DNA of 40,528 nt from Myxococcota bacterium (GTDB taxonomy: Bacteria > Myxococcota_A > UBA9160 > PR03): contig JBFGJV010000003.1 of the NCBI GenBank assembly GCA_041577015.1, positions 1-40,528 on the forward strand, read 5' to 3'. The position numbers and the translations under genes are program-made. Shown one piece after another: positions 4,917-39,287 of this stretch. Numbering within the stretch: the stretch's first letter is position 1; every line of letters begins with the position of its first letter. The notes beneath the pieces were generated by a model. The model was given only the letters and a program-made list of their open reading frames with translations, did no database searches and was not told the origin of the DNA.

Positions 4917-6602
4917 TCAGGCCGCGGGTGCTTCGGCCCGGGCCGGTTGACGTCCGTACAAGGCGTTGGCGGCGGCATCCATGTCGGCGACCAGGTGCGC
5001 CTGGGCGCGGTGGATGGCGTCCAGGTCCAGCGCCCGGGTGAAGGCCGCCAGCTCGGCATCCGGGACGCCGTCGGCGCCGACGACCCAGCGCAGGCCCTCC
5101 TCGGCCACGCGCAGCGCCGCCTCGCGAGCGTAGACGCGCGCCAGCGTCGCCAGGGCGTCGGGTCCGAAGCGCGCGTCCGCCTTCTCCGGCAGCTCGCGGC
5201 GCGCCGACGCCGCGGCGCGTCGCGCCAGGCTGGCCGCGCCCTCCGCGCACGCGCAGAGCTCTCCCAGGCGGAACAGCACGTGCTGATTGCGGGTCAGACG
5301 CGCCACCCGGGCGCGCTCCATCACCGCGCCGAGCGCACGCAGCGCCAGGCCCGCGACGTCGGCTCCGCAGGCTGGGTCGGCGGAGGCCAGGGAGGCCAGC
5401 GCCTCCGCCTGGCGGACGTAGTGCTGGCCCCGGGTCTTCAGGTGCAGCTGCCACCGGTCCCGCGCGATGGTCATCTCCATGATCTCCGAGGTTCCCTCGT
5501 AGATCGTGGTGATGCGGACGTCGCGCTTGATCTTCTCCACCAGGTACTCGCGGACGTAGCCGTAGCCGCCCAGCGCCTGGATGCTGGCGTCCGCGGCCTG
5601 GTTGCCGGCCTCGCTGGCCAGGTACTTTGCGATGGCCCCCTCGGTGTTGAGGGAGCTCTCCTCCGCGTCGAGACGAAGCGCGGTCTCTTCGATGTAGGCG
5701 CGGGCCGCCTCGAGCCGGGCCGCGTGGGGGACGATCAGCTTGTGCGTGTAGCCCTGCTTCTCGGCGAGGGGCGAGCCCGCCTGGATGCGCTCGCGGGAGT
5801 AGGGGATGGCGCGATCCAGTGCCGCCCAGCCCGCGCCCAGCCCGAAGGCGGCCACCATGAGCCGGGTGTAGCCGAACACCTGCTGCGCCTGGGCCAGACC
5901 CAGCCCCTCGGCGCCTCCCACCAGCCCCTCCGGCTCGACCGAAATGCCATCCAGGACCAGGGCCGCGGTGTTGCTGCTGCGAATGCCGTGCTTGTCCTCC
6001 GGCCGCTCCGCCTGGAGACCCGGCGCTCCCTTCCCCACCACGAACCAGCTCGGACCCCCGGGCGCCAGGGCCAGGATCGTGTAGGCATCCGCGACGCCGC
6101 CGTTGCTGATCCACTGCTTGCGCCCATGGAGCTCGTAGCCCACCACGCGTCCGTCTCGCTCGATCGGCGTCGCGGTGGTGCGCAGCGCCGCAAGGTCGCT
6201 GCCGGCCTCGGGCTCCGTGGCGCAGTACGCCATCAGGAGGCCCTCTTCCGCGATGCGCGAGAGCCAGCGCTCGCGCTGCTCGGGGGTTCCTCCCACGCGG
6301 ATCGGATCGCTGCCCAGGAAGGTGGCCAGCAGGCCGGTGGCGACGCCGAGGTCGATGCGGGCCAGCTCCTCGCATACCCGGTAGACGTCGAAGGCGCCCG
6401 CCCCCATGCCGCCGAACTCCTCGGGCACGAAGAAGAGCTGGATGCCCAGCTGGGGACCGCACATCTCGCGCACGACCTCGAGCGGCATCTCGTCGCGGGC
6501 GTCGAGCTCGAGCAGCTGCTCGGGCCCGAGCCGGAGCTTCGCGAACTCCCGCAGGGACTCGAGCGTGAGCTCGAGGCTCTCGCGATCCAGACCTTCCGGC
6601 AT
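4917..6602 (-). CDS. Acyl-CoA dehydrogenase family protein with C-terminal extension
   Basis: [48 protein letters not shown] motifs; ends 20 bp upstream of the PKS start on the same strand. Confidence 0.93.
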
Positions 6603-12410: not shown

Positions 12411-13446
12411 GGCGCTGCGGATCGCCGACGTCGAGATCCCGCCCGGCCGCGCGGTCTCGCTGCGCATTCCCGTGGCGCGGCCCTACGGCCAGGCGGAGGT
12501 GTTCCTGCCCGCGCGCGTGGTGCGGGGACGCAAGCCCGGCGCGCACCTCTTCGTCTCTGCGGCCATCCACGGCGACGAGATCAACGGCGTCGAGATCATC
12601 CGCCGCCTGCTGCGAAACCCGGCGCTGCGGCGCCTGCACGGCATGCTGATCGCGGTGCCGGTGGTGAACGTCTACGGCTTCCAGATCCAGAGCCGCTACC
12701 TGCCGGACCGGCGCGATCTGAATCGCTCCTTCCCGGGCTCCGCCACCGGCTCCCTCACCGCGCGTCTCGCCCACCAGTTCATGCGCCACGTGGTGGCCCA
12801 CGCCAGCCACGGGATCGACCTGCACACGGGCGCCATCCACCGGGCCAACCTGCCCCAGATCCGCGCCTGCCTGGACGACGCGGAGACGGAGCGACTCGCG
12901 CGGGCCTTCGGCGCGCCCGTGATCCTGAACGCAAACCTGCGTGACGGCTCGTTGCGTCAGGCGGTGCTGGAGCGCGACATCCCCATGCTGGTCTACGAGG
13001 CGGGCGAGGCGCTGCGCTTCGACGAGCTGGCCATCAGCGCCGGCGTGCGCGGCGTGCTCTCGGTGATGCGCGCCATCGGCATGCTGCCCGCCGGCAAGGT
13101 GCCCAAGAAGGCCGTCGAGCCCTTCGTGGCGCGCTCGAGCGCCTGGGTGCGCGCCCCGGACAGCGGCATCTTCCGAGCCGCTCCGCGCCTGGGCGCCAAG
13201 GTCTCGAAGGACGCGGTGGTGGGGGTGATCGCGAATCCCCTGGGCGAGAACGAGGTGGAGGTACGCGCGCCGGTGGCGGGGGTGGTGATCGGACGCACCA
13301 ACATCCCGCTGGTGAACGAGGGCGACGCGCTGCTGCACGTGGCCAGCTTCGAGCGGCCGGCCACCGTCGCCCAGCAAGTGGAGGTCTTCCAGGAGGCGCT
13401 GGCTCCCGGGCCGACGGCCGAGCCCCTGGAGCGTCCGCCCGCCTGA
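12403..13446 (+). CDS. Succinylglutamate desuccinylase/aspartoacylase family (M14-like) zinc peptidase
   Basis: AAIHGDEING, DLNRSFPG, IDLHTG, YEAGE and a C-terminal biotinyl-like hairpin domain; ATG 12403 overlaps the rimK stop. Confidence 0.92.
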   Translation: MPEALRIADVEIPPGRAVSLRIPVARPYGQAEVFLPARVVRGRKPGAHLFVSAAIHGDEINGVEIIRRLLRNPALRRLHGMLIAVPVVNVYGFQIQSRYLPDRRDLNRSFPGSATGSLTARLAHQFMRHVVAHASHGIDLHTGAIHRANLPQIRACLDDAETERLARAFGAPVILNANLRDGSLRQAVLERDIPMLVYEAGEALRFDELAISAGVRGVLSVMRAIGMLPAGKVPKKAVEPFVARSSAWVRAPDSGIFRAAPRLGAKVSKDAVVGVIANPLGENEVEVRAPVAGVVIGRTNIPLVNEGDALLHVASFERPATVAQQVEVFQEALAPGPTAEPLERPPA

Positions 13447-30138: not shown

Positions 30139-30552
30139 TCAGCCCGCGGCGGTGCGCCGCGGGTTCTCGTGCGTCGCGCAGCGCTCGTCGCAGCCCACGC
30201 GTCCGGTCAGCCGCAGGCGGTTACGGGCGAACCAGCGGTAGCCGGCCTCCGCCACCCGCCGCAGGCCCGGCCAGCGGGTGGGCGCCAGCAGCCAGCCCAG
30301 ACCCACGGCGGCATAGGCGCGCCGGAAGACCTCGAGGCCCTCGATCACCCTTCCGTCGGGAAGGCGCCCGTGGATGCGCGCCATCAGGTCGGCCCGGGAG
30401 CGCCGATAGGGCGCCGGGTCGAAGGCGGGGGCCGCGATGTCGGTGAAGACGATGCGCCCGCGCTTGCGGTCGAGCCGTCGCAGCCCGCGGATCTCCCGCG
30501 CGCAGAGCGGGCAGTCGCCATCGAAGAGAATCTCGATCTCCCAATTCGCCAT
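30139..30552 (-). CDS. DCC family (DUF393) thiol-disulfide oxidoreductase-like protein
   Basis: ILFDGDCPLCAREI (DxxCxxC), Y.WFARNR; ATG 30552. Confidence 0.9.
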   Translation of the reverse strand: MANWEIEILFDGDCPLCAREIRGLRRLDRKRGRIVFTDIAAPAFDPAPYRRSRADLMARIHGRLPDGRVIEGLEVFRRAYAAVGLGWLLAPTRWPGLRRVAEAGYRWFARNRLRLTGRVGCDERCATHENPRRTAAG

Positions 30553-30634
30553 AGGGTGAATATAGACGAAAAATCCCTGTAATGACCAGTGAGAGGCAGA
30601 AATACGATCTAAGCTACTGTTTTTGCTAATTTCT

Positions 30635-30661
30635 TGTTGTCTAAATATTTTATAGACAACA
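30635..30661. promoter_or_regulatory. Palindromic operator TGTTGTCTA-N9-TAGACAACA (candidate CarH/LitR site)
   Basis: Perfect 9-bp inverted repeat in an AT-rich intergenic region; its core geometry matches 36151-36173 upstream of carH/phrB. Confidence 0.7.
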
Positions 30662-30681
30662 GCCCGCCAGCCGGGTACACT
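30653..30681 (+). promoter_or_regulatory. Sigma-70 promoter of the sigma factor gene
   Basis: -35 TAGACA 30653-30658, 17 bp spacer, -10 TACACT 30676-30681, then GGAGGAG RBS and ATG 30707. Confidence 0.7.
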
Positions 30682-30706
30682 CTCGATCGCGCCCGGAGGA
30701 GCTTCC

Positions 30707-32026
30707 ATGTATGCCACGGCAGCTGCGCTCGGCCACGCCAACGAGCCCGGTGCTGCGCGTTCGCCCGGGCGTCGCCCGGCCGCCAGCCCGGACATCCTCG
30801 ACTGCTACCTCGCCGACATCCGGGACATTCCCCTGCTGTCTGGAGAGCAGGAGCTGGCGCTCTCGCGGCGCATGCGGAGGGCGGAGGCCGAGCTGCGGCG
30901 GTCCCTGCTGGAGACGCCGGCGGCGGCCCGGCTCCTGGCACGGCGCTGGCGGCGGCTGCGGCGCGCGGGGCGCGTGACGGGAGGCCTGAGCGTCCTGCAC
31001 CGCGGGGGCGGCGACGGTGACGCGAGCCAGCACGTGAACGGCTGCATGGCGCAGGTGGAGAGGGTGCTCGGGCGACTCGACGAGGTAGCTCACGGCCGTC
31101 GCCGCGGGGCCGCCTCCGCGCGTCGAGCCCTGCGCGCCCGCTTGACCAGGATCTTGGAGCGCCTCGATCCGACTCCGGAGGTCCTCGCCGAGATCCACCG
31201 CGCGCTCAAGGCGGAGTCGGAGGACCCGGCGCTCACGGCTCGGGAGTGGGCGCGGGAGCGCGCGCGCGCACGACGCGCCTGTCGGAGCCTCACCGAGGCC
31301 AAGAACACCTTCATGCGCCGCAACCTGCGCCTGGTGGTGTCCGTGGCCAAGGGCTTTCGCGGCATGGGTGTCGAGTTCGAGGATCTGATCGAGGAGGGCA
31401 ACCTGAGTCTGATGCGGGCCGTGGAGAAGTTCGACCCGGAACGGGGCTTCCGCTTCTCCACCTATGCCGTGTGGTGGATCCGTCAGGCCTGTATTCGAGC
31501 GGTGCAGAACACGTCGCGGACGATCCGGCTGCCAACCCACCTCTACGACCGCCTGCTCAAGTACCGCCGCATCCTTGCAAACTGGCATCGAGACCACGCG
31601 GAGGATCCCAGCCTCGCCGACGTGGCGCGGGAGATGGGCGTCTCCGAGGACGAGCTCGCGGAGCTGGTGCAGGCAGACCGCCGGCCGCTCGGTCTCGACG
31701 AGCCGGTCAGCGGAAGCGATGACGTGGTGGTCGCCGATCGCATTCGTCACGACGAAGATGCCGATGCCGTCCTGGACGGGCTGCGCCTGCAGGGCGAGAT
31801 CCCCTCCCTTCTGGCCCGCCTGTCTCCACGCGAGCGGCGTGTCCTCGAGTGGCGCTTCGGTCTCGGCGAGGGGCCCGAGCAGACGCTTCAGGCGGTGGGC
31901 GACACGCTGGGCCTCTCTCGCGAGCGCGTGCGACAGATCGAGCGTGAAGCCCTGGTGAAGCTGCGCGGCGAGGCGGAGGTGCGCGGCCTGCGCAGTCTAC
32001 TGGATGGGGAGGTCGCGCCGACCTGA
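30707..32026 (+). CDS. RNA polymerase sigma-70 factor, RpoD/RpoS-like (group 2-type, no region 1.1)
   Basis: Region 1.2 YLADIRDIPLLSGEQE, non-conserved insert, NLRLVVSVAK, DLIEEGN.SLMRAVEKFD, RFSTYAVWWIRQA, RTIRLP, region 4.2 LSRERVRQIE. Confidence 0.95.
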   Translation: MYATAAALGHANEPGAARSPGRRPAASPDILDCYLADIRDIPLLSGEQELALSRRMRRAEAELRRSLLETPAAARLLARRWRRLRRAGRVTGGLSVLHRGGGDGDASQHVNGCMAQVERVLGRLDEVAHGRRRGAASARRALRARLTRILERLDPTPEVLAEIHRALKAESEDPALTAREWARERARARRACRSLTEAKNTFMRRNLRLVVSVAKGFRGMGVEFEDLIEEGNLSLMRAVEKFDPERGFRFSTYAVWWIRQACIRAVQNTSRTIRLPTHLYDRLLKYRRILANWHRDHAEDPSLADVAREMGVSEDELAELVQADRRPLGLDEPVSGSDDVVVADRIRHDEDADAVLDGLRLQGEIPSLLARLSPRERRVLEWRFGLGEGPEQTLQAVGDTLGLSRERVRQIEREALVKLRGEAEVRGLRSLLDGEVAPT

Positions 32027-32033
32027 GCGGCGC

Positions 32034-32516
32034 TCAGGCCTCCAACCGTGAGCCGACCTCCGCGGCGGGGAAGAGCTCCCGGATGCGCCGGAAGCGGTAG
32101 TCGAAGATCGCGGCCAGCGCGGCGCGGACGGCCAGCTCGTGAGCCAGCGTTCCGAGCGGGCCCAGCGGCAGTCGGTAGTGCACGCGGTCGGTCATGAGCA
32201 CGCCGCCTCCCAGCGTCGCGAAGCGATGCTCGTGCTCCCAAAGGGCGTACGGGCCGCGCTGTTGGACGTCGAGGAACCCATCGGGCGGCTTCCAGCGCGC
32301 GATGCGCGTCCGCCAGCGCACCGGGAGGCCGGCGAGCCGGATCCGATAGGAGATGAGTGCTCCCTCGCGCATCGCGATGGGCAGGGGCGTAAGGATGCGG
32401 AAGCCCAGCCAGGGCGGCGTGAGGGTCTCCAGATTGGCCGCGTCCGAGAAGAAGGAGAATACCCGCTCCCGGGGAGCGGGAATCCACTGCTCCCGCTCCA
32501 GCAGGTACGGCTTCAA
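32034..32516 (-). CDS. SRPBCC (START-like) family protein
   Basis: LEREQWIPAPRERVFSFFSDAANLETLTPP, F.D.Q.RGPY..WEHEHRF, DRVHY.LP, IFDYR; TTG 32516 in a TTGA overlap with the acyltransferase stop. Confidence 0.88.
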   Translation of the reverse strand: MKPYLLEREQWIPAPRERVFSFFSDAANLETLTPPWLGFRILTPLPIAMREGALISYRIRLAGLPVRWRTRIARWKPPDGFLDVQQRGPYALWEHEHRFATLGGGVLMTDRVHYRLPLGPLGTLAHELAVRAALAAIFDYRFRRIRELFPAAEVGSRLEA

Positions 32517-33556
32517 GCGGCGCTCGGGAGCGTTTCCGCCCGATGCGCCTCGATCCAGGCGTCCAGGCGACTCCACTGGTTGTAGAGCCACGCCACCCGC
32601 TCCTCGCGGCCACGGGGAATCTCCGTCGCCGGCGCGCGCCCGAAGGCGACACGGATGCGTCGCCCGATCAGGGCGCCGCGCCAGAGCTGCCTGAAGCTGG
32701 CGGTGCCCTCGAAGCCCACGTGGGCGAGGAAGAGCACGTCGGCCTCGGGGCTGGCCTCCAGCAACGCCAGCGGGCCGCCGAGCCGCGGTGGAAGCACGTG
32801 GTGGAGCTGGCGCGCCCGTGCCACCAGGCCGGGGTCGTGGGCGCGCTCCAGCCGCGCCAGCACGCGCTCGCGCTTGGCGGGGCTGAAGCGTGTGCCCTCG
32901 GGAAAGATCAGCACGCCCTCGTCGTCGGCCAGGTGCTCCGCGAGGCGCCGCACCGCGTCGAGTTCGCGCTCGCTGTCCGCCGAGTCGCGTCTCACGAAGA
33001 CGTTCGGCACGCGCTGCCCCACCACGTCGAGACAGGGATCCCACAGCAGCTCGCGCTTGATCACGTAGCGCAGGCGAACGTCGTGCTGCGCCGAGATCAA
33101 GACGGCCGGCAGGATGGTGTCGCCCACGCTCGCGTGCCGGCAGAACACGAGCAGCGGTCCGCGCCCGATGGCCCCCGCCCCGCTCACCTCGAGCTCGACG
33201 TCGTAGATGCGCCGCACGCCCCACAGCAGCAGCCGCGCCCACAGGCCCTGGAGCCGGTGGTTCCAGCGCGCGTAACGCTCCGGCGCCGCGCCTGCCCAGC
33301 TTCCGCTCGCGAGCCAGGCCGTGCCCGCAGCCACGAGGCCCAGGCTCTCGCACCCCAGGTAGAAGGCCAGGAACAGCACGAGGCGTGCGATGGGAAACGG
33401 CCGTCGCCGCAGGGCGTCCACCAGGAGGGCCGCGGGCAACACGATGGGCAGCAACGTCCACAGCGCGACGGTCATGGCCAGATAGCCGGGAATCGTGAGC
33501 GCACGGCGGCCCCAGCGCGCCGCGAGCGTCTCGTCCCCGGGAAGCGGTCCTCTCAC
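32513..33556 (-). CDS. PlsC-like phospholipid/glycerol acyltransferase with N-terminal TM segments
   Basis: HASVGD (HxxxxD), YVIKRELLWDP, FVRR, IFPEGTR, LPPR motifs; start GTG 33556 is approximate. Confidence 0.88.
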   Translation of the reverse strand: MRGPLPGDETLAARWGRRALTIPGYLAMTVALWTLLPIVLPAALLVDALRRRPFPIARLVLFLAFYLGCESLGLVAAGTAWLASGSWAGAAPERYARWNHRLQGLWARLLLWGVRRIYDVELEVSGAGAIGRGPLLVFCRHASVGDTILPAVLISAQHDVRLRYVIKRELLWDPCLDVVGQRVPNVFVRRDSADSERELDAVRRLAEHLADDEGVLIFPEGTRFSPAKRERVLARLERAHDPGLVARARQLHHVLPPRLGGPLALLEASPEADVLFLAHVGFEGTASFRQLWRGALIGRRIRVAFGRAPATEIPRGREERVAWLYNQWSRLDAWIEAHRAETLPSAA

Positions 33557-33576
33557 GGTTCGAAGCGGACGCGCGC

Positions 33577-34119
33577 TCAATCGCTTCCCAGCGCCGGCCC
33601 CGCCCGAGCACGGAGCTCCAGGAAGCCAGCCATCACACCCGCGGCCAGCAGGTTCGCGACGGCCACCGACCCGGCGCCCAGCTCGCCGAGCGCGCCCGGC
33701 ATGAAGAGACCACCGATTCCCAGGAAGATCGCCTGGCACGCCACGAAGAGCGCCAGCCACACCAGAAGAGCGTGCAGGAAGCTGCGAGCCCCGGAGCGCC
33801 GACGGCTCAGCGCGGCGAACGCCGCCGTCAGACCCAGGAATACGAAGATCGTGCCGTGCATCACCGTGTAGCCGGCGACCAGCGCGCCCTGCACGACGCC
33901 GGGCTCGGGAAGCTTTCCCAGGAAGAAGGCGGACCCGAGCGCGTGGGGCGTGGCGAACGGCCGGCCCTCGCCAAGATCGAGCACGAAGAAGAAAGCGGCG
34001 ATCGCGAATGCACCGAGCACGCCCGCGAGGATCCCGTGGGCCACCCACGGGACGGAGCTCACGTCCACCGCGTCGACGTCGACCTCGCTCGCCGTGGTCT
34101 CGACGGATTTCGTGGTCAT
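33577..34119 (-). CDS. Hypothetical four-TM membrane protein
   Basis: ATG 34119 with AGAGAGGA RBS; hydrophobic helices; G.PF.TP.ALG and YTVMHG segments. Confidence 0.75.
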   Translation of the reverse strand: MTTKSVETTASEVDVDAVDVSSVPWVAHGILAGVLGAFAIAAFFFVLDLGEGRPFATPHALGSAFFLGKLPEPGVVQGALVAGYTVMHGTIFVFLGLTAAFAALSRRRSGARSFLHALLVWLALFVACQAIFLGIGGLFMPGALGELGAGSVAVANLLAAGVMAGFLELRARAGPALGSD

Positions 34120-34224
34120 GGGGTCACGTCCTCTCTGCGTATCCGACGACCACACTACATGAGATGCCGGCAGCGGGTACACGGCTTGCCCCGTGGGGTC
34201 GGGCGTGTGGAGGTCCCCGCGCCC

Positions 34225-35223
34225 TCAGGCGGGCGGGGCGGGGGCCGCGCCCACCCCCCGCCGCGGTGCGCGCCGGCGCGGCGCGCTCTCCAGGCCGGCG
34301 AGCCGGGTGCAGAGATCCCAGAGCGCACGGCGGTCGTCCGCCGTCTCGCGGGTGAAGGGCAGCAGGTGCTCGCGGGCCGGTGCCCGGTCGAACCAGAAGC
34401 CCCCGCTCGAGCGCGCGGGCTCGGCGGCCACCGCCAGCCAGATGGCCGTGTCCGCGCCCTCCTCGGCTGTGCGGAGGATGGCGCGCGTTGCGCGCCAGAA
34501 GCGCGGCAGAGACGTGCGCACCCCGGCGGTCGCGGCCCATCCCGGATGCATGGCGTGCACCACCACGCCATCCTCGCGCAGCCGCTCGGCCAGGAGCCCG
34601 GTCAGGACCACCTGCATCCGCTTGGCCTGCGCATAGGCGACGGTGCCGTCGAAGGCCCGGCGCCGCCAGGTGAGATCGTCCAGGGAGAGGCGCTGGGTGT
34701 ACATGCCGCCCGAGGACACGAACACGATCCGCGCGTGTCGGGCCGCCCGGAGCTTCCCCTCGAGCAGACGCGTGAGCAGGAAGGGACCCACCACGTGGGT
34801 TGCGAGCGTCCGCTCGATGCCCTCTTCGGTGAGCTCGCGCTCCGCCAGCAGGGCTCCGGCGTTGTGGACCAGCAGGTCCACGCGAGCCTCGGAGAAGTGC
34901 TCGGCGAAGCGCCGCACGGAGCCCAGGTCCGAGACGTCCAGCACGGCCAGGCGTATCCGGGGGTTGCCGCTCTCGGCCCGCAGTCCCGCCTCGGCCTCGC
35001 GGCCGCGCGCCTCGCTCCGACACAGCAGCCACACCGTGGCGCCCCGACGCGCCAGGGCCAGCGCCGTCGCGCGACCGATGCCCGCGTTGGCCCCCGTCAC
35101 CAGGCAGATGCGGCCGGACAGATTTGCGTCCAGATCCTCGGGCCGGAAGCCTCGCGCATGCCGCCGGAAGCCGTTGCGGTCGAAAGAGAAGACGATCGAG
35201 GCGTCGAGCAGGCGCCCGATCAC
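34225..35223 (-). CDS. Short-chain dehydrogenase/reductase (DHRS12-like)
   Basis: TGANAGIG, HNAG, VSSGGMY, YAQAKR, MHPGWAATAGV, GADTAIWL; GTGA overlap with the carH stop. Confidence 0.9.
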   Translation of the reverse strand: MIGRLLDASIVFSFDRNGFRRHARGFRPEDLDANLSGRICLVTGANAGIGRATALALARRGATVWLLCRSEARGREAEAGLRAESGNPRIRLAVLDVSDLGSVRRFAEHFSEARVDLLVHNAGALLAERELTEEGIERTLATHVVGPFLLTRLLEGKLRAARHARIVFVSSGGMYTQRLSLDDLTWRRRAFDGTVAYAQAKRMQVVLTGLLAERLREDGVVVHAMHPGWAATAGVRTSLPRFWRATRAILRTAEEGADTAIWLAVAAEPARSSGGFWFDRAPAREHLLPFTRETADDRRALWDLCTRLAGLESAPRRRAPRRGVGAAPAPPA

Positions 35224-36122
35224 GACGCGCGCCGGGCCCGGGCGCCGAGCAGACCCACCTTGTGCTCGAGCGCCTCGGCCGACTCGATGCGCTGAGCGCC
35301 GGACGGAAGCTCGACCGCGTCGGAGCCCGGGCCTCCCAACCAGAGCTCCACCTGGGGCGGAAGTCCGGCGCGCAGGCTGCGCAGCGTGCGCTCGGCCTCG
35401 CGCGCGGGAAGCCGGGCGATGCCCAGCGCGACCGCCCGCGCATCGAGCTGCTCGGTGGCGGCCAGCACCTCCTCAACCGGGAGGTCCGGTCCCAGGAAGA
35501 CCGCGTTGGCGCCCGCCTCCGCGGCGGCTACGGCGGCGACGAGCGCGCCGATCTCGTGGCGCTCGTTCGGGGGCGTCGTGAAGAGCACCGTCGGGGCCTG
35601 GGCCAGCGCGCGTCGGCGCAGGGAGGAGCCGAGCAGGCTGCGTATGGCTGCGCTCGCCAGGTGCTCCGCGGCCACGCACAGCTCGCCGGCCTTCCAGCGC
35701 TCGCCCACCTCGCGCAGCAGGGGCGAGACCACCAGGCTGCCGAAGCGCCGGGGGCCGAGCGCCGCGAGCTGCAGGGCCAGCTGGCGCTCCACCTCGTCCA
35801 CGTCCAGTCGATGGAGCGCCGAGAGCAGCGCCTGCAGCGGACCCTGCGCGGGCGCCTCGCGCGTCTCCACGCGTCGCTCCAGCTCGGCGTCCCCGAGCGC
35901 CGCGACCTCCGAGATCGGATGACCGGCCTCCACCGCCGCGCGGAGTAGACGCAGGCGCATCACCTCCGACTCGCGGTAGCGCCGCGTGCCCCCCGGCGTG
36001 CGCAGCGGTCGGACCGCCCCGTAACGCCGCTCCCAGGCCCGCAAGACGTGCGGGGAGAGGCCGGTCAGTCGGGATACGGCGCCGAGGGAGTAGGTCGCTT
36101 CGAGGGATCGGGTCCTGGGCAC
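35220..36122 (-). CDS. carH: MerR-family, cobalamin-binding light-responsive repressor (CarH/LitR)
   Basis: MerR HTH with LRAWERRYG and RTPGGTRRY; W-x9-EH (WKAGELCVAAEH) AdoCbl photoreceptor motif; ERHEIG B12-binding motif; FLGPDLP; LGG. Start taken as GTG 36122. Confidence 0.92.
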   Translation of the reverse strand: MPRTRSLEATYSLGAVSRLTGLSPHVLRAWERRYGAVRPLRTPGGTRRYRESEVMRLRLLRAAVEAGHPISEVAALGDAELERRVETREAPAQGPLQALLSALHRLDVDEVERQLALQLAALGPRRFGSLVVSPLLREVGERWKAGELCVAAEHLASAAIRSLLGSSLRRRALAQAPTVLFTTPPNERHEIGALVAAVAAAEAGANAVFLGPDLPVEEVLAATEQLDARAVALGIARLPAREAERTLRSLRAGLPPQVELWLGGPGSDAVELPSGAQRIESAEALEHKVGLLGARARRAS

Positions 36123-36128
36123 TGAGGA

Positions 36129-36205
36129 AGGGTCGCGAGTGAGGGCAGCGCTGTCAAGAAAGGATCTAGACAGGATTTGACAGCCCGGGAGCCTCGTGCG
36201 AGCTT
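36129..36205. promoter_or_regulatory. Divergent carH / phrB promoters with candidate CarH operator
   Basis: CTGTCAA-N9-TAGACAG palindrome 36151-36173 and a further TTGACA 36177-36182 (AGGATCTAGAC/AGGATTTGAC direct repeat). Minus-strand TTGACA-17-GACCCT places +1 near GTG 36122; plus-strand TTGACA-17-GAGCTT precedes phrB. Confidence 0.7.
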
Positions 36206-36218
36206 CCGGGCGATTCGC

Positions 36219-37631
36219 ATGCGTGCCCTCCACTGGTTTCGCAGCGACCTGCGTCTGCGCGACAACGCCGCCCTGGCCGCCGCGGCGTCCGCCGCGGACG
36301 AGCTGGTGGTCGCCTTCGTGCTGGACGACCGCCTGCTGGCCGGCGAGTCCACGGGCGCACCCCGGGTGCGCTTCCTGCTCGGTTGCCTGGAACGTCTGGC
36401 CGCGGATCTGGAGCGGCGCGGTCAGCGCCTGGTGGTGCGACGCGGCGACCCCCGCCGTGAGCTGCCCCGCCTGCTGCGGGAGACGGGAGCCGAGCGGCTC
36501 ACCTTCGCACGCGACTACGGCCCCTATGCCCGCGCTCGGGACGAGGCCGTGCGGGTGGGCGCCGAGAAGCTCGGCGTCGTGGTTCGCGACCTGAAGGACC
36601 GGGTGGTCTTCGAGAGCTCCGAGGTGCGCACCCGAGCCGGCGAACCCTTCCGCGTCTACACGCCCTTCCGGCGCGCGTGGGTGGCGCGCTTCCGCGAGGA
36701 CCCGCAGGAGCCGCTGGGGCCGGTGCGCCTGCCGCCGCCTCCGTCCGACCTGCGTGCCGGCAGGCTTCCGGAGGCCCGCAGCGTCGGCGCCGCGGACGAC
36801 GCCACCCAGATCCCCCCGCCCGGCGAGGCGGCCGCGCGTCGCCGGCTCCATGCCTTCCTGGAGCAGGGTCTCGCCGCGTACGCGAAGCGCCGCGACCTGC
36901 CGGGCGTAGACGGCACCTCCCGTCTCTCGCCCTACCTGCGTCTCGGCGCGATCTCCGTGCGCTGCTGCATCCAGGCCGCTCGCGAGCGCGTCCGCGACGA
37001 GCCGGCGGCCCGGGACGGGGCTCGTACCTGGATCGACGAGCTGGTCTGGCGCGAGTTCTACCACGCGATCCTGGCCGAGCATCCGCACGTGCTCGAGCGC
37101 GCCTTCCGTCCCGAGTTCGAGGCGATGCGCTGGAACGACGACGAGCCCGGCTTCCGAGCCTGGTGCCAGGGACGCACGGGCTATCCCTTCGTGGACGCCG
37201 CCATGCGGCAGCTGGCGGCCACGGGCTGGATGCACAACCGTGCGCGCATGGTGGTGGCCAGCTTCCTGACCAAGGACCTGCTGGTGGACTGGCGCCTGGG
37301 CGAGCGCTTCTTCATGCAGCACCTCGTGGACGGGGACCCCGCCTCGAACAACGGGGGCTGGCAGTGGGCGGCCTCCACCGGGACCGACGCACAGCCGTAC
37401 TTCCGCATCTTCAACCCCGTCTCCCAGGGCGAGCGCTTCGATCCGGACGGGAGCTACGTGCGGCGCTGGGTGCCCGAGCTCGCGCAGGTTCCCGACCGCT
37501 TCCTGCACAAGCCGTGGCTCTCACCGAGCCCTCCGCGCGACTATCCGGCGCCCATCGTCGATCACGCCGAGCGCCGGGCGCTGGCCCTGCGCCGCTACGA
37601 GGCCGCACGCGGCGCGCACTCCGGGCGATGA
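36219..37631 (+). CDS. phrB: Deoxyribodipyrimidine (CPD) photolyase
   Basis: HWFRSDLRLRDN, YTPF, TSRLSPYL, ELVWREFY, GRTGYPFVDAAMRQL, GWMHNRARM, NNGGWQW, YFRIFNP, FDPDG.YVRRWVPEL; ATG 36219. Confidence 0.96.
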   Translation: MRALHWFRSDLRLRDNAALAAAASAADELVVAFVLDDRLLAGESTGAPRVRFLLGCLERLAADLERRGQRLVVRRGDPRRELPRLLRETGAERLTFARDYGPYARARDEAVRVGAEKLGVVVRDLKDRVVFESSEVRTRAGEPFRVYTPFRRAWVARFREDPQEPLGPVRLPPPPSDLRAGRLPEARSVGAADDATQIPPPGEAAARRRLHAFLEQGLAAYAKRRDLPGVDGTSRLSPYLRLGAISVRCCIQAARERVRDEPAARDGARTWIDELVWREFYHAILAEHPHVLERAFRPEFEAMRWNDDEPGFRAWCQGRTGYPFVDAAMRQLAATGWMHNRARMVVASFLTKDLLVDWRLGERFFMQHLVDGDPASNNGGWQWAASTGTDAQPYFRIFNPVSQGERFDPDGSYVRRWVPELAQVPDRFLHKPWLSPSPPRDYPAPIVDHAERRALALRRYEAARGAHSGR

Positions 37632-38620
37632 GCCCGTCCCGACCCGGACCGGTCGAGCCGCTCTGGAAGGATCGCGCGCCCATCCGCGTCGGCGTCTCCA
37701 GCTGTCTGCTGGGTCGGAAGGTGCGCTGGGACGCCGGGCACAAGCGCGACCGTTTCGTCACCGACGTGCTGGGCGCGTACGTCGAGTGGGTGCCGGTCTG
37801 CCCCGAGGTGGAACTCGGCATGGGGATCCCGCGTGAGCCGGTGCGGCTCGTGCGCGACGAGGGCGGCGTGCGCATGATCGCCGACCGCAGCGGGCGCGAT
37901 CACACCGGGGCCATGCGCCGCTGGGCGAAGCGTCGCGTCCGTGAGCTGGAGAAGCTCGAGCTGTGCGGCTATGTGCTGAAGAAGGATTCCCCCAGCTGCG
38001 GGATGGAGCGCGTGAGGGTCTACGCCGCGAGCGGCATGCCGCAGAAGAACGGGCGCGGACTGTTCGCGGATGCCCTGCTGCAGCACTTCGAGAGCCTGCC
38101 GGTGGAGGAAGAGGGGCGTCTCCACGACCCCCGGCTGCGCGAGAACTTCGTGGAGCGCGTCTTCGCGTATCGGAGGTTGCGCTCGCTGTTCGCCTCGCGC
38201 TGGAGCCTCCGAGACCTGGTTGCCTTCCACACCGCCGAGAAGCTCCAGCTGATGGCGCACTCACCGGGGGGCTATCGGGAGCTCGGGCGCCTGGTGGCCA
38301 ATGCGAAGCAGCACACGCGGACCCATCTCCGCGAGCATTACGTTCGCGGCTTCATGCGCGCACTCGGCCACCCGGCCACGGTGCGACGCAACGTGAACGT
38401 GCTCCAGCACGTGCTCGGCCACTTCAAGAAGCGCCTGGAGGCTGCGGACCGCGCCGAGTTGCTCCACCTGATCCAGGACTACCGGGCCGGGCTCGTGCCG
38501 CTGGTGGTTCCGATCACCTTGATCCGTCACCACGTACGACGGCTCGGACTGGACTACCTGGCGGGCCAGGTCTATCTGGAGCCCCATCCCAAGGAGATGA
38601 TGCTCCGCAACCACGTCTAG
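37628..38620 (+). CDS. DUF523 + DUF1722 (YbgA) fusion; TudS/RudS-like thiouridine desulfidase
   Basis: VGVSSCLLG..VRWDAGHK, CPEV, KKDSPSCG (Fe-S Cys ligands), EEEGRL.D..LRENF, C-terminal YL.GQVYLEPHP; ATGA overlap with phrB. Confidence 0.9.
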   Translation: MSPSRPGPVEPLWKDRAPIRVGVSSCLLGRKVRWDAGHKRDRFVTDVLGAYVEWVPVCPEVELGMGIPREPVRLVRDEGGVRMIADRSGRDHTGAMRRWAKRRVRELEKLELCGYVLKKDSPSCGMERVRVYAASGMPQKNGRGLFADALLQHFESLPVEEEGRLHDPRLRENFVERVFAYRRLRSLFASRWSLRDLVAFHTAEKLQLMAHSPGGYRELGRLVANAKQHTRTHLREHYVRGFMRALGHPATVRRNVNVLQHVLGHFKKRLEAADRAELLHLIQDYRAGLVPLVVPITLIRHHVRRLGLDYLAGQVYLEPHPKEMMLRNHV

Positions 38621-39198: not shown

Positions 39199-39228
39199 GT
39201 GCTCTCCCTCCGACCCCGGCCGCGTTCT

Positions 39229-39256
39229 TTGACAAGCCGCGGACGAACCCTATCCC
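39229..39256 (+). promoter_or_regulatory. Candidate sigma-70 promoter (possibly CarH-controlled) of the FAD oxidoreductase
   Basis: TTGACA 39229-39234, CGGACG 11 bp later, TATCCC 39251-39256 (16 bp spacer), purine-rich RBS before ATG 39288. Confidence 0.45.
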
Positions 39257-39287
39257 CCAAGGTTAGCCAACGGGGGAAGGAAGTCGG

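Follow-up and report, generated by a model that had tools for sequence, protein, structure and literature searches.

Two intergenic sites with a conserved inverted hexamer core are probable operators of a CarH-type regulator in a Myxococcota bacterium

CarH, the founding member of the B12-based photoreceptors, has found wide use as a tool in optogenetics and materials. To our knowledge, what is understood of its DNA recognition comes from a single crystal structure and a small number of footprints, which have all been read as repeats in the same direction. Here we analyzed a stretch of 40,528 nucleotides from a Myxococcota bacterium (assembly GCA_041577015.1, contig JBFGJV010000003.1, positions 1 to 40,528; called the window below), which carries a carH gene and two intergenic copies of the sequence TGTCWA-N9-TAGACA. 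Site 1 lies upstream of a gene for a sigma-70 family factor, and site 2 lies between carH and a divergent photolyase gene. An earlier reading of the same letters, referred to below as the original prediction, had proposed that both sites are bound by this CarH.

In the mechanism described for the family, CarH oligomers loaded with adenosylcobalamin (AdoCbl) bind promoter-overlapping operators in the dark and fall apart upon photolysis of the cofactor (PMC8156234 and PMC9304148). The CarH (LitR) of the Thermus thermophilus crtB-carH region works in this way, with a dark repression that is relieved by AdoCbl photolysis (PMC8156234). The carH promoter on pTT27 of T. thermophilus HB8 reads TGTACA-N5-TTGACA-N5-TATACA, followed by TACCCT and ATG, and thus has three same-strand repeats, as published. 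In the myxobacterium Sorangium cellulosum, CarH has two operators per genome, which lie between divergent genes, overlap the promoters of both, consist of either three tandem direct repeats or one repeat and two pseudo-repeats, and serve carotenoid genes; the control of two divergent promoters by one site was shown there by footprinting (PMC9304148). At the carB operator of Myxococcus xanthus CarA/CarH, inverted repeats (pI and pII), one of them over the -35 hexamer TTGACA, were first proposed as the recognition elements (Lopez-Rubio 2004, as cited in PMC9304148). They are degenerate outside Myxococcus and Corallococcus, and direct repeats were concluded instead (PMC9304148). A more distant relative is the class II LitR of Pseudomonas (PplR1/PmlR2), also of the MerR family, which represses light-inducible genes, including some near a photolyase gene, from a bipartite site over the -35 element, TGTACA-N12-TGTACA; light is sensed by a LOV-protein anti-repressor and not by AdoCbl (PMC9758184).

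Both sites of the window were found in the sequence where the original prediction had placed them. The core of site 1 is TGTCTA-aatatttta-TAGACA (30638-30658), and that of site 2 is TGTCAA-gaaaggatc-TAGACA (36152-36172). TGTCWA-N9-TAGACA had 3 matches in the window, two of them from site 1 read on either strand and one from site 2, where 0.01 would be expected, and a count of 3 was not reached in any of 100 shuffles. With both strands of the 40.5-kb window counted, TAGACA occurs three times, always within the two sites. The hexamer alone was not enriched in the window (3 found against 1.94 expected, with 31 of 100 shuffles reaching 3), and allowing up to 3 mismatches in the full motif brought no additional window site (2 found against 1.52 expected, nonsignificant by itself). 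The window was also scanned with a weight matrix derived from 16 sites that lie upstream of carH in other genomes; the window itself was excluded, L013 was dropped because it is near-identical to L012, and L010 was not used. With this matrix, site 2 ranked first (25.8 bits) and site 1 second (22.5 bits). The next unrelated 21-mer of the window reached only 4.9 bits (mean, -34.3; standard deviation, 8.3), so that the matrix gave no further site.

Related loci were collected by scanning GTDB species representative genomes with a CarH alignment, and the best 80 of 177 relatives were used. Loci L001 to L021 come from Myxococcota-type bins and encode a CarH 47 to 66% identical to that of the window, while L022 to L080 are mostly from Gemmatimonadota (about 40%). 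In 17 of the 21 close loci, the palindrome was present, with at most 2 mismatches, no more than about 130 bp ahead of the carH match, and the equivalent place in L010 has CGTCGA-N9-TTGACA, which scores 25.9 bits with the matrix and raises the count to 18. Where inverted TGTnnA...TnnACA pairs occurred upstream of carH, the spacer was 9 in 16 of the 21 loci; the only other value was 21, seen once. The consensus, oriented toward carH, is TGTCnA-nATnnTTnC-TTGACA, with invariant columns clustered in the hexamers and diverged intergenic DNA on the flanks. Over all 1,110,101 bp of fetched loci, TGTnnA-N9-TnnACA matched 28 times: 21 matches are directly upstream of carH (16 in L001 to L021 and 5 in the distant group), 5 are second sites, and 2 are chance-like (L034 and L056). 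The second sites adjoin genes that also neighbor carH, and thus 26 of the 28 matches stand beside carH or its neighbor genes. An orthologue of the sigma factor gene is found near carH only in L001 and L002, in both cases with the palindrome just upstream (TGTCTA-N9-TAGACA, again perfect, in L001; TGTTTA-N9-TAGACA in L002). Conservation upstream of orthologues had been named as a check by the original prediction; when it was run, the motif stood upstream of carH in 18 of 21 loci and of the sigma orthologue in 2 of 2. Together with the expected number and the matrix ranking, this link to carH supports the view that the two sites are one shared motif.

The motif also occurs away from divergent promoters. 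In L019 and L021, a perfect palindrome with 8-bp arms, TGTCTAGATAAAATCTAGACA, directly follows the carH stop codon and lies 6 nt ahead of the start of the next gene on the same strand, its left arm serving no gene. A second copy in L008 lies between same-strand open reading frames (ORFs), about 0.9 kb upstream of a gene for a fusion of AhpC-TSA_2 with a short-chain dehydrogenase/reductase (SDR) that is 57% identical to the SDR of the window. Loci L008 and L020 have, in addition, weaker matrix matches (at 12945, 16.7 bits, and at 12545, 17.7 bits, respectively) 2 to 3 kb downstream of carH. In L014, a variant site, TGTCAA-N9-TAGATA-N5-TAGACA (6212-6243), lies about 1.1 kb upstream of carH.

The carH gene of the window (35220..36122, minus strand) encodes a MerR-type DNA-binding domain followed by B12-binding_2 and B12-binding domains, according to Pfam and structure alignment. 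The N-terminal winged helix matches MerR_1 (residues 11-76; E = 3.4e-15), and the C-terminal module consists of B12-binding_2 (97-164) and B12-binding (178-266, at the curated cut-off of 32.1 bits). Residues 9 to 285 align to the T. thermophilus CarH structures 3WHP and 5C8D (E = 2e-36); helix and wing segments are closely aligned, and the two cofactor motifs, Wx9EH (W143-x9-E153-H154) and ExHxxG (E187-x-H189-x-x-G192), are identical. W143, E153, H154, and H189 have identical aligned counterparts in 3WHP and do not vary among 28 homologues. Wx9EH caps the 5'-deoxyadenosyl group and ExHxxG provides the lower-axial His, and the two together define CarH homologues (PMC8156234). The CarH equivalog NF052513 was the best-scoring NCBIfam family, at 159.8 bits against a cut-off of 400, and the nearest database relatives, from Myxococcota metagenome bins, are only about 64% identical. 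Judged from these sequence features, the regulator is a genuine CarH-type (class I LitR) protein and a distant member of the family. It is like the Thermus protein in architecture and cofactor motifs, with an identity of about 37 to 39% and a linker between the DNA-binding and B12 parts that is 8 residues longer. It differs from class II LitR in its class I AdoCbl motifs and in its associated site, TGTCnA-N9-TnGACA. The class II operator TGTACA-N12-TGTACA (PMC9758184) was considered for the window and rejected, as the sites read TGTCWA-N9-TAGACA instead.

Site 2 had been taken for a simple palindrome of two halves. It contains three TnGACA hexamers, one inverted and two direct with a 10-bp period, and reads TGTCAA-N4-TGTCTA-N9-TTGACA toward carH. 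H1 (TTGACA, 36152..36157, minus strand) is the probable -35 hexamer of the carH operon, on the basis of its sequence and conservation; H2 (TAGACA, 36167..36172, plus strand), located by pattern search, is inverted relative to H1 across the 9-nt spacer. H3 (TTGACA, 36177..36182, plus strand), which came out of a palindrome search, follows the core as a direct repeat of H2 and is the probable -35 hexamer of the photolyase operon. H1 and H3 form an outer 8-bp palindrome, GCTGTCAA-N19-TTGACAGC (36150-36184), nested around the N9 palindrome, which makes H3 a better pairing partner for H1 than H2. The 11-mer around H2, GATCTAGACAG (36163-36173), matches the published CarH repeat nAnnTnnACAn (PMC8156234). 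As a purely geometric observation, a 9-nt spacer would let two such 11-bp units abut with one base between them.

The assignment of -35 hexamers at site 2 was made by reading the sequence and by conservation. Of 19 aligned sites, 17 have TTGACA as the hexamer next to carH. At the distal position, 9 of the 19 have TGTCTA, TGTCGA, or CGTCGA, which would be a poor -35 element for the divergent gene, and an extra (G/A)TCAA hexamer 10 to 11 bp further out was found in 7 of these 9 sites compared with 2 of the 10 sites having a perfect TGTCAA. The third hexamer thus occurs in 9 of the 19 sites, mostly where H2 is not TTGACA-like. Given this split, the distal hexamer is kept at its exact spacing even where another hexamer is available as a -35 element. 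For the photolyase promoter, H3 is the more likely -35 hexamer. The corresponding -10 hexamers, GACCCT and GAGCTT, are weak. H1 and H3 lie 30 to 37 nt upstream of the carH and photolyase start codons, with the GTG of carH (36122) about 30 nt downstream of H1. These starts lack a Shine-Dalgarno sequence in the window (36120-36157 and 36177-36221); the carH starts of L001 to L020 likewise lack one and lie equally close to the TTGACA hexamer, and the same distance from TTGACA to the start was seen for Thermus carH (L081, 1478-1515). This layout suggests that the carH and photolyase mRNAs may be leaderless or nearly so, with a weak -10 element of the form nAGnTT.

Site 1 proved to be longer than first reported, with a full palindrome from 30635 to 30661 (no strand) in which 9 positions are paired, TGTTGTCTA-aatatttta-TAGACAACA. 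Its perfect 9-bp arms are TGTTGTCTA (30635-30643) and TAGACAACA (30653-30661), and it is identified by the matrix and by its conservation in L001 and L002. It sits in an A/T-rich island, the G+C content being 0.485 at 30500-30699 and 72.8% in the window overall. A consensus scan called a promoter-like site for the sigma factor gene at 30653..30681 (plus strand), with the TAGACA of the right arm as -35, a 17-nt spacer, and TACACT as -10; GGAGG (30695-30699) and the ATG (30707) follow. The promoter of the sigma gene in L001 keeps this layout (TAGACA-18-TAGACT). In the window and in L001 alike, gccggg-TA(C/G)ACT stands 17 to 18 nt past the right arm and is followed by GGAGG and ATG; therefore, the right arm is taken as the -35 element of the sigma gene.

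The divergent neighbor encodes a DCC1-like thiol-disulfide oxidoreductase (30139..30552, minus strand), as it does in L001; in L002, glutathione peroxidase takes this place. The sole promoter-like site of the DCC1-like gene (TGGTCA-18-TATATT, 30588..30559) is about 50 bp away and does not overlap the palindrome. The left arm was not supported as its -35 element since no acceptable -10 hexamer lies at 16 to 18 nt, and the scan lists none. The original prediction had put each site on divergent promoters and on a -35 hexamer. Both sites do lie between divergent genes, although at site 1 only the sigma promoter is overlapped; and a -35 hexamer is overlapped at site 1 by the scan and at site 2 by sequence reading and conservation of the TTGACA hexamers, the scan calling no full promoter there. 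A classical MerR-type activator site, with a palindrome inside a 19- to 20-bp spacer between -35 and -10, was also rejected, as the palindromes overlap the -35 hexamer and extend upstream of it, and site 1 has a 17-nt spacer. So was an RNA element or terminator at site 1: a 9-bp hairpin could form, yet it would sit on the -35 hexamer with an A/T-rich stem and no T-run after it. In addition, half-site position 5 varies independently between the two arms in the matrix counts, which was counted against a hairpin, and an Rfam search over the whole window gave no match.

The predicted target of site 1 is a sigma-70 family factor of 439 amino acids (30707..32026, plus strand) with regions 1.2, 2, 3, and 4 by Pfam and NCBIfam. 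It is RpoD/RpoS-like in NCBIfam, yet under every curated cut-off. About 140 Arg/Ala-rich residues without Pfam coverage separate region 1.2 (29-58) from region 2 (203-271). A light regulator of this family is also linked to a sigma factor in the LitR-LitS cascade of Streptomyces coelicolor, with the sigma factor directing light-dependent transcription. LitS is an ECF (extracytoplasmic function) sigma factor that drives carotenoid genes, whereas the factor in the window is full length, with regions 1.2 to 4, and RpoD/RpoS-like.

The arrangement around carH resembles that of Thermus in that TTGACA serves as the probable carH -35 hexamer with the start codon about 30 nt further on and carH is divergent from an operon containing a photolyase gene. 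The operators differ. Thermus has three same-strand repeats with an 11-bp period, while site 2 has an inverted hexamer 9 nt upstream of TTGACA and another 10 bp beyond; the upstream direct repeat is replaced by inverted ones, and no repeat lies in the spacer between -35 and -10. When we looked for at least two same-strand TnnACA cores with an 11-bp period, site 2 showed two with a 10-bp period plus one inverted, and site 1 showed an inverted pair only. The claim that an inverted geometry with a fixed 9-bp spacer sets these sites apart from direct repeats was borne out against the three direct repeats of the Thermus promoter and the published 11-bp direct-repeat model (PMC9304148, PMC8156234). 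From S. cellulosum, with which the window shares two sites between divergent genes, it differs by the inverted core, the fixed 9-nt spacer, and its predicted targets, which are a photolyase gene, lipid-related genes, and a sigma factor gene; no carotenoid gene was found by Pfam among the neighbors of either site. Unlike the inverted repeats of M. xanthus, the inverted pair of the window type is the most conserved feature across the close loci.

In the distant group of 58 loci, the operator, TGTCAA-N5-TGTCTA-N10-TTGACA-N5-TAGACA, has the hexamer order of site 2 plus one hexamer, and a relaxed form of this four-hexamer pattern was found upstream of carH in 25 of the 58 loci and nowhere in 1.05 Mb of control sequence. 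An 11-bp direct period was present in 42 of these loci, compared with none of the 21 close loci (strict TnnACA, upstream of carH); inverted pairs with N10 were present in 12, and those with N21 were present in 27. The four-hexamer operator of Gemmatimonadota is found some 130 bp ahead of the carH match (L036, L040, and L070 are examples), and many of these loci have a further pair, TGTCTA-N5-TGTCGA, about 40 bp upstream. In L022 and L024, the core of this four-hexamer operator has N9.

We consider that the two sites are probably operators of a light regulon under the AdoCbl-dependent repressor CarH encoded at 36122-35220. CarH is the best candidate for the binding protein because it is the sole DNA-binding protein common to loci L001 to L021. 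The motif tracks carH whatever the neighbor genes, and the half-site equals the published CarH core TnnACA (PMC8156234, PMC9304148). We infer that CarH binds both sites, contacting the inverted hexamer with a DNA-binding domain turned the other way, that this binding causes repression, and that the sigma factor has its place further down the pathway. Without light, a CarH oligomer loaded with AdoCbl would set its MerR-type domains on the TnGACA hexamers. At site 2 it would cover three of them, H1 inverted and H2 and H3 direct, and thereby mask the TTGACA -35 hexamer of the carH operon (carH and the genes for the SDR, a membrane protein, an acyltransferase, and an SRPBCC protein) as well as that of the divergent photolyase/desulfidase operon. 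At site 1, the oligomer would lie over the two-hexamer palindrome, whose right arm is the putative -35 element of the sigma factor gene. Light would photolyse AdoCbl, the oligomer would fall apart, and all three transcription units would be released. Through the sigma factor, the response may then spread to further genes.

Several points weigh against CarH binding of this kind. CarH operators in the literature consist of direct repeats in tandem, and the palindromes once proposed for M. xanthus CarA have been re-read in that sense (PMC9304148), so that contact with an inverted hexamer would be unprecedented for the family. TTGACA is also a generic -35 hexamer, which confounds the conservation of half-sites that serve a promoter. 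The consensus scan called no sigma-70-type promoter-like site at site 2, where the promoter overlap is a matter of interpretation. In three of the 21 close loci, no site is found immediately upstream of carH; it lies about 1.1 kb farther upstream in L014 and just downstream of the gene in L019 and L021. Moreover, the related loci are not phylogenetically independent, and locus counts overstate the number of independent observations.

In one rival explanation, CarH would contact same-strand repeats only, as in the published model, namely, H2 and H3 at site 2 or one repeat with degenerate pseudo-repeats at site 1; the inverted hexamer would then be a -35 element and the palindrome incidental. 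CarH can bind one good and two degenerate repeats, and the M. xanthus precedent points the same way (PMC9304148). H2 and H3 do have a direct orientation, and H1 is a perfect TTGACA in nearly all aligned sites, as a -35 hexamer should be. However, site 1 and its L001 counterpart are perfect palindromes without a second same-strand TnnACA at a 10- to 11-bp period, and TGTCTAGATAAAATCTAGACA in L019 and L021 has 8-bp arms although no divergent gene lies on the side of its left arm. Nor would incidental palindromes be expected to keep a spacer of exactly 9 in 16 of 21 loci, or about 25 of 58 distant loci to have two facing hexamers per strand in a pattern absent from the control sequence. We therefore regard direct repeats alone as an unlikely explanation. 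Two back-to-back -35 boxes, with no repressor reading the palindrome as a unit, had been offered as the alternative in the original prediction, and 10 of the 19 aligned sites do have perfect TTGACA hexamers on opposite strands between divergent genes, as two generic sigma-70 hexamers would. Independent promoters need no fixed spacing, though, and the distal hexamer is TAGACA, TCGACA, or similar in the other 9 sites, 7 of which have a separate TTGAC hexamer 10 to 11 bp further out. At site 1, the left arm has no acceptable -10, and the sole minus-strand promoter-like site is some 50 bp off. The palindrome persists, moreover, between genes of the same direction in L019, L021, and L008. As a sole explanation, paired -35 boxes are very unlikely.

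A different dimeric regulator could also read the palindrome, such as a LysR-type protein, in view of the T-N11-A in the core, a regulator of the CRP/FNR type such as LdrP of Thermus, or the light-induced sigma factor on TAGACA. Palindromes with 15 bp between half-site centers are unusual for CarH, and the CRP/FNR regulator gene ldrP adjoins carH in Thermus. Against this stand the absence of any other regulator gene conserved beside the motif in the 21 loci or next to either window site, on which ground LysR and CRP/FNR binders were rejected, and the association of the motif with carH even in loci without the sigma gene. A sigma factor, for its part, needs no palindrome, and the half-site is that of CarH. 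Such a regulator is thus very unlikely.

Beyond CarH binding as such, it is possible, as a tentative proposal, that a large, uncultured CarH branch (Myxococcota-type and Gemmatimonadota metagenome-assembled genomes) binds with its domains facing each other on two inverted TnGACA hexamers, 9 or 10 nt apart and flanked by direct repeats, and that, in the lineage of the window, CarH also gates a full-length sigma-70-type factor in a two-tier B12/light cascade. Instead of carotenoid genes, this cascade would control DNA repair, tRNA de-thiolation, and lipid-related genes. Facing domains, if true, would mean an oligomer-DNA architecture unlike the solved Thermus complex. An inverted core fixed across the clade would demonstrate that one and the same DNA-binding domain can also work head-to-head, and it would offer short symmetric 21-bp operators for engineering. 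Even ordinary CarH binding at these sites, if true, would give a clean regulon annotation. The motif would be a ready predictor of light regulons in uncultured Myxococcota and Gemmatimonadota, and its predicted targets widen B12/light control to photolyase, a RudS-like desulfidase, the acyltransferase, SRPBCC, and SDR proteins, the DCC oxidoreductase, and the sigma factor. Literature text searches turned up no account of such an inverted operator for CarH, and an earlier description may exist, for example, in the supplementary operator alignments of PMC9304148. Within these searches, three features appear to be unpublished, namely, the inverted core with its fixed spacing, the fact that two phyla of uncultured bacteria conserve it, and a full-length sigma-70-type target of CarH. 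Photolyase beside carH is already known from Thermus, and two operators per genome and divergent dual control are known from S. cellulosum (PMC9304148); the shutting of two back-to-back promoters by one site, considered in the original prediction, had been footprinted there.

The gene layout was derived from frame-specific G+C content, the ORFs, and Pfam matches. On the minus strand, carH is followed by the SDR gene (35223-34225), a gene for a membrane protein of 201 amino acids with no Pfam or NCBIfam family (34182-33577), the acyltransferase gene (about 33430-32513), and the SRPBCC/polyketide-cyclase-like gene (32516-32034). The starts and stops in this string (32034..35223) overlap or are closely spaced. 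Stop and start codons overlap between carH and the SDR gene (35220-35223, GTGA) and between the acyltransferase and SRPBCC genes (32513-32516, TTGA), both on the minus strand; these predicted overlaps imply translational coupling within the carH operon. Genes of the string also flank carH in L001 and others, and DCC homologues are part of the string downstream of carH in L003, L005 to L007, L009, L011, and L015. An ORF of L008 (17524-18159) was rejected as a homologue of the membrane protein, since it showed no similarity (E = 0.51) and no Pfam match.

On the other side of site 2, the plus strand carries the DNA photolyase gene (36219-37631) and a gene for a fusion of 2-thiouracil desulfurase with DUF1722 (37631-38620), both identified by Pfam. 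A photolyase gene is divergent from carH in 16 of the 21 close loci, and the desulfurase/DUF1722 gene is syntenic with it in most related loci. The pair of 2-thiouracil desulfurase and DUF1722 has been described as RudS, a tRNA 4-thiouridine desulfidase (PMC11417400).

Two minor observations concern the direction and the surroundings of the sites. Asymmetry of the spacer was rejected as a direction signal, the matrix orientation pointing toward the sigma gene in the window and away from it in L001. The intergenic region between divergent glutathione peroxidase and amine-oxidase genes of the window (39199-39287) contains a lone TTGACA (39230-39235) without a palindrome partner, and homologues of these two genes adjoin the two operator sites of L002.

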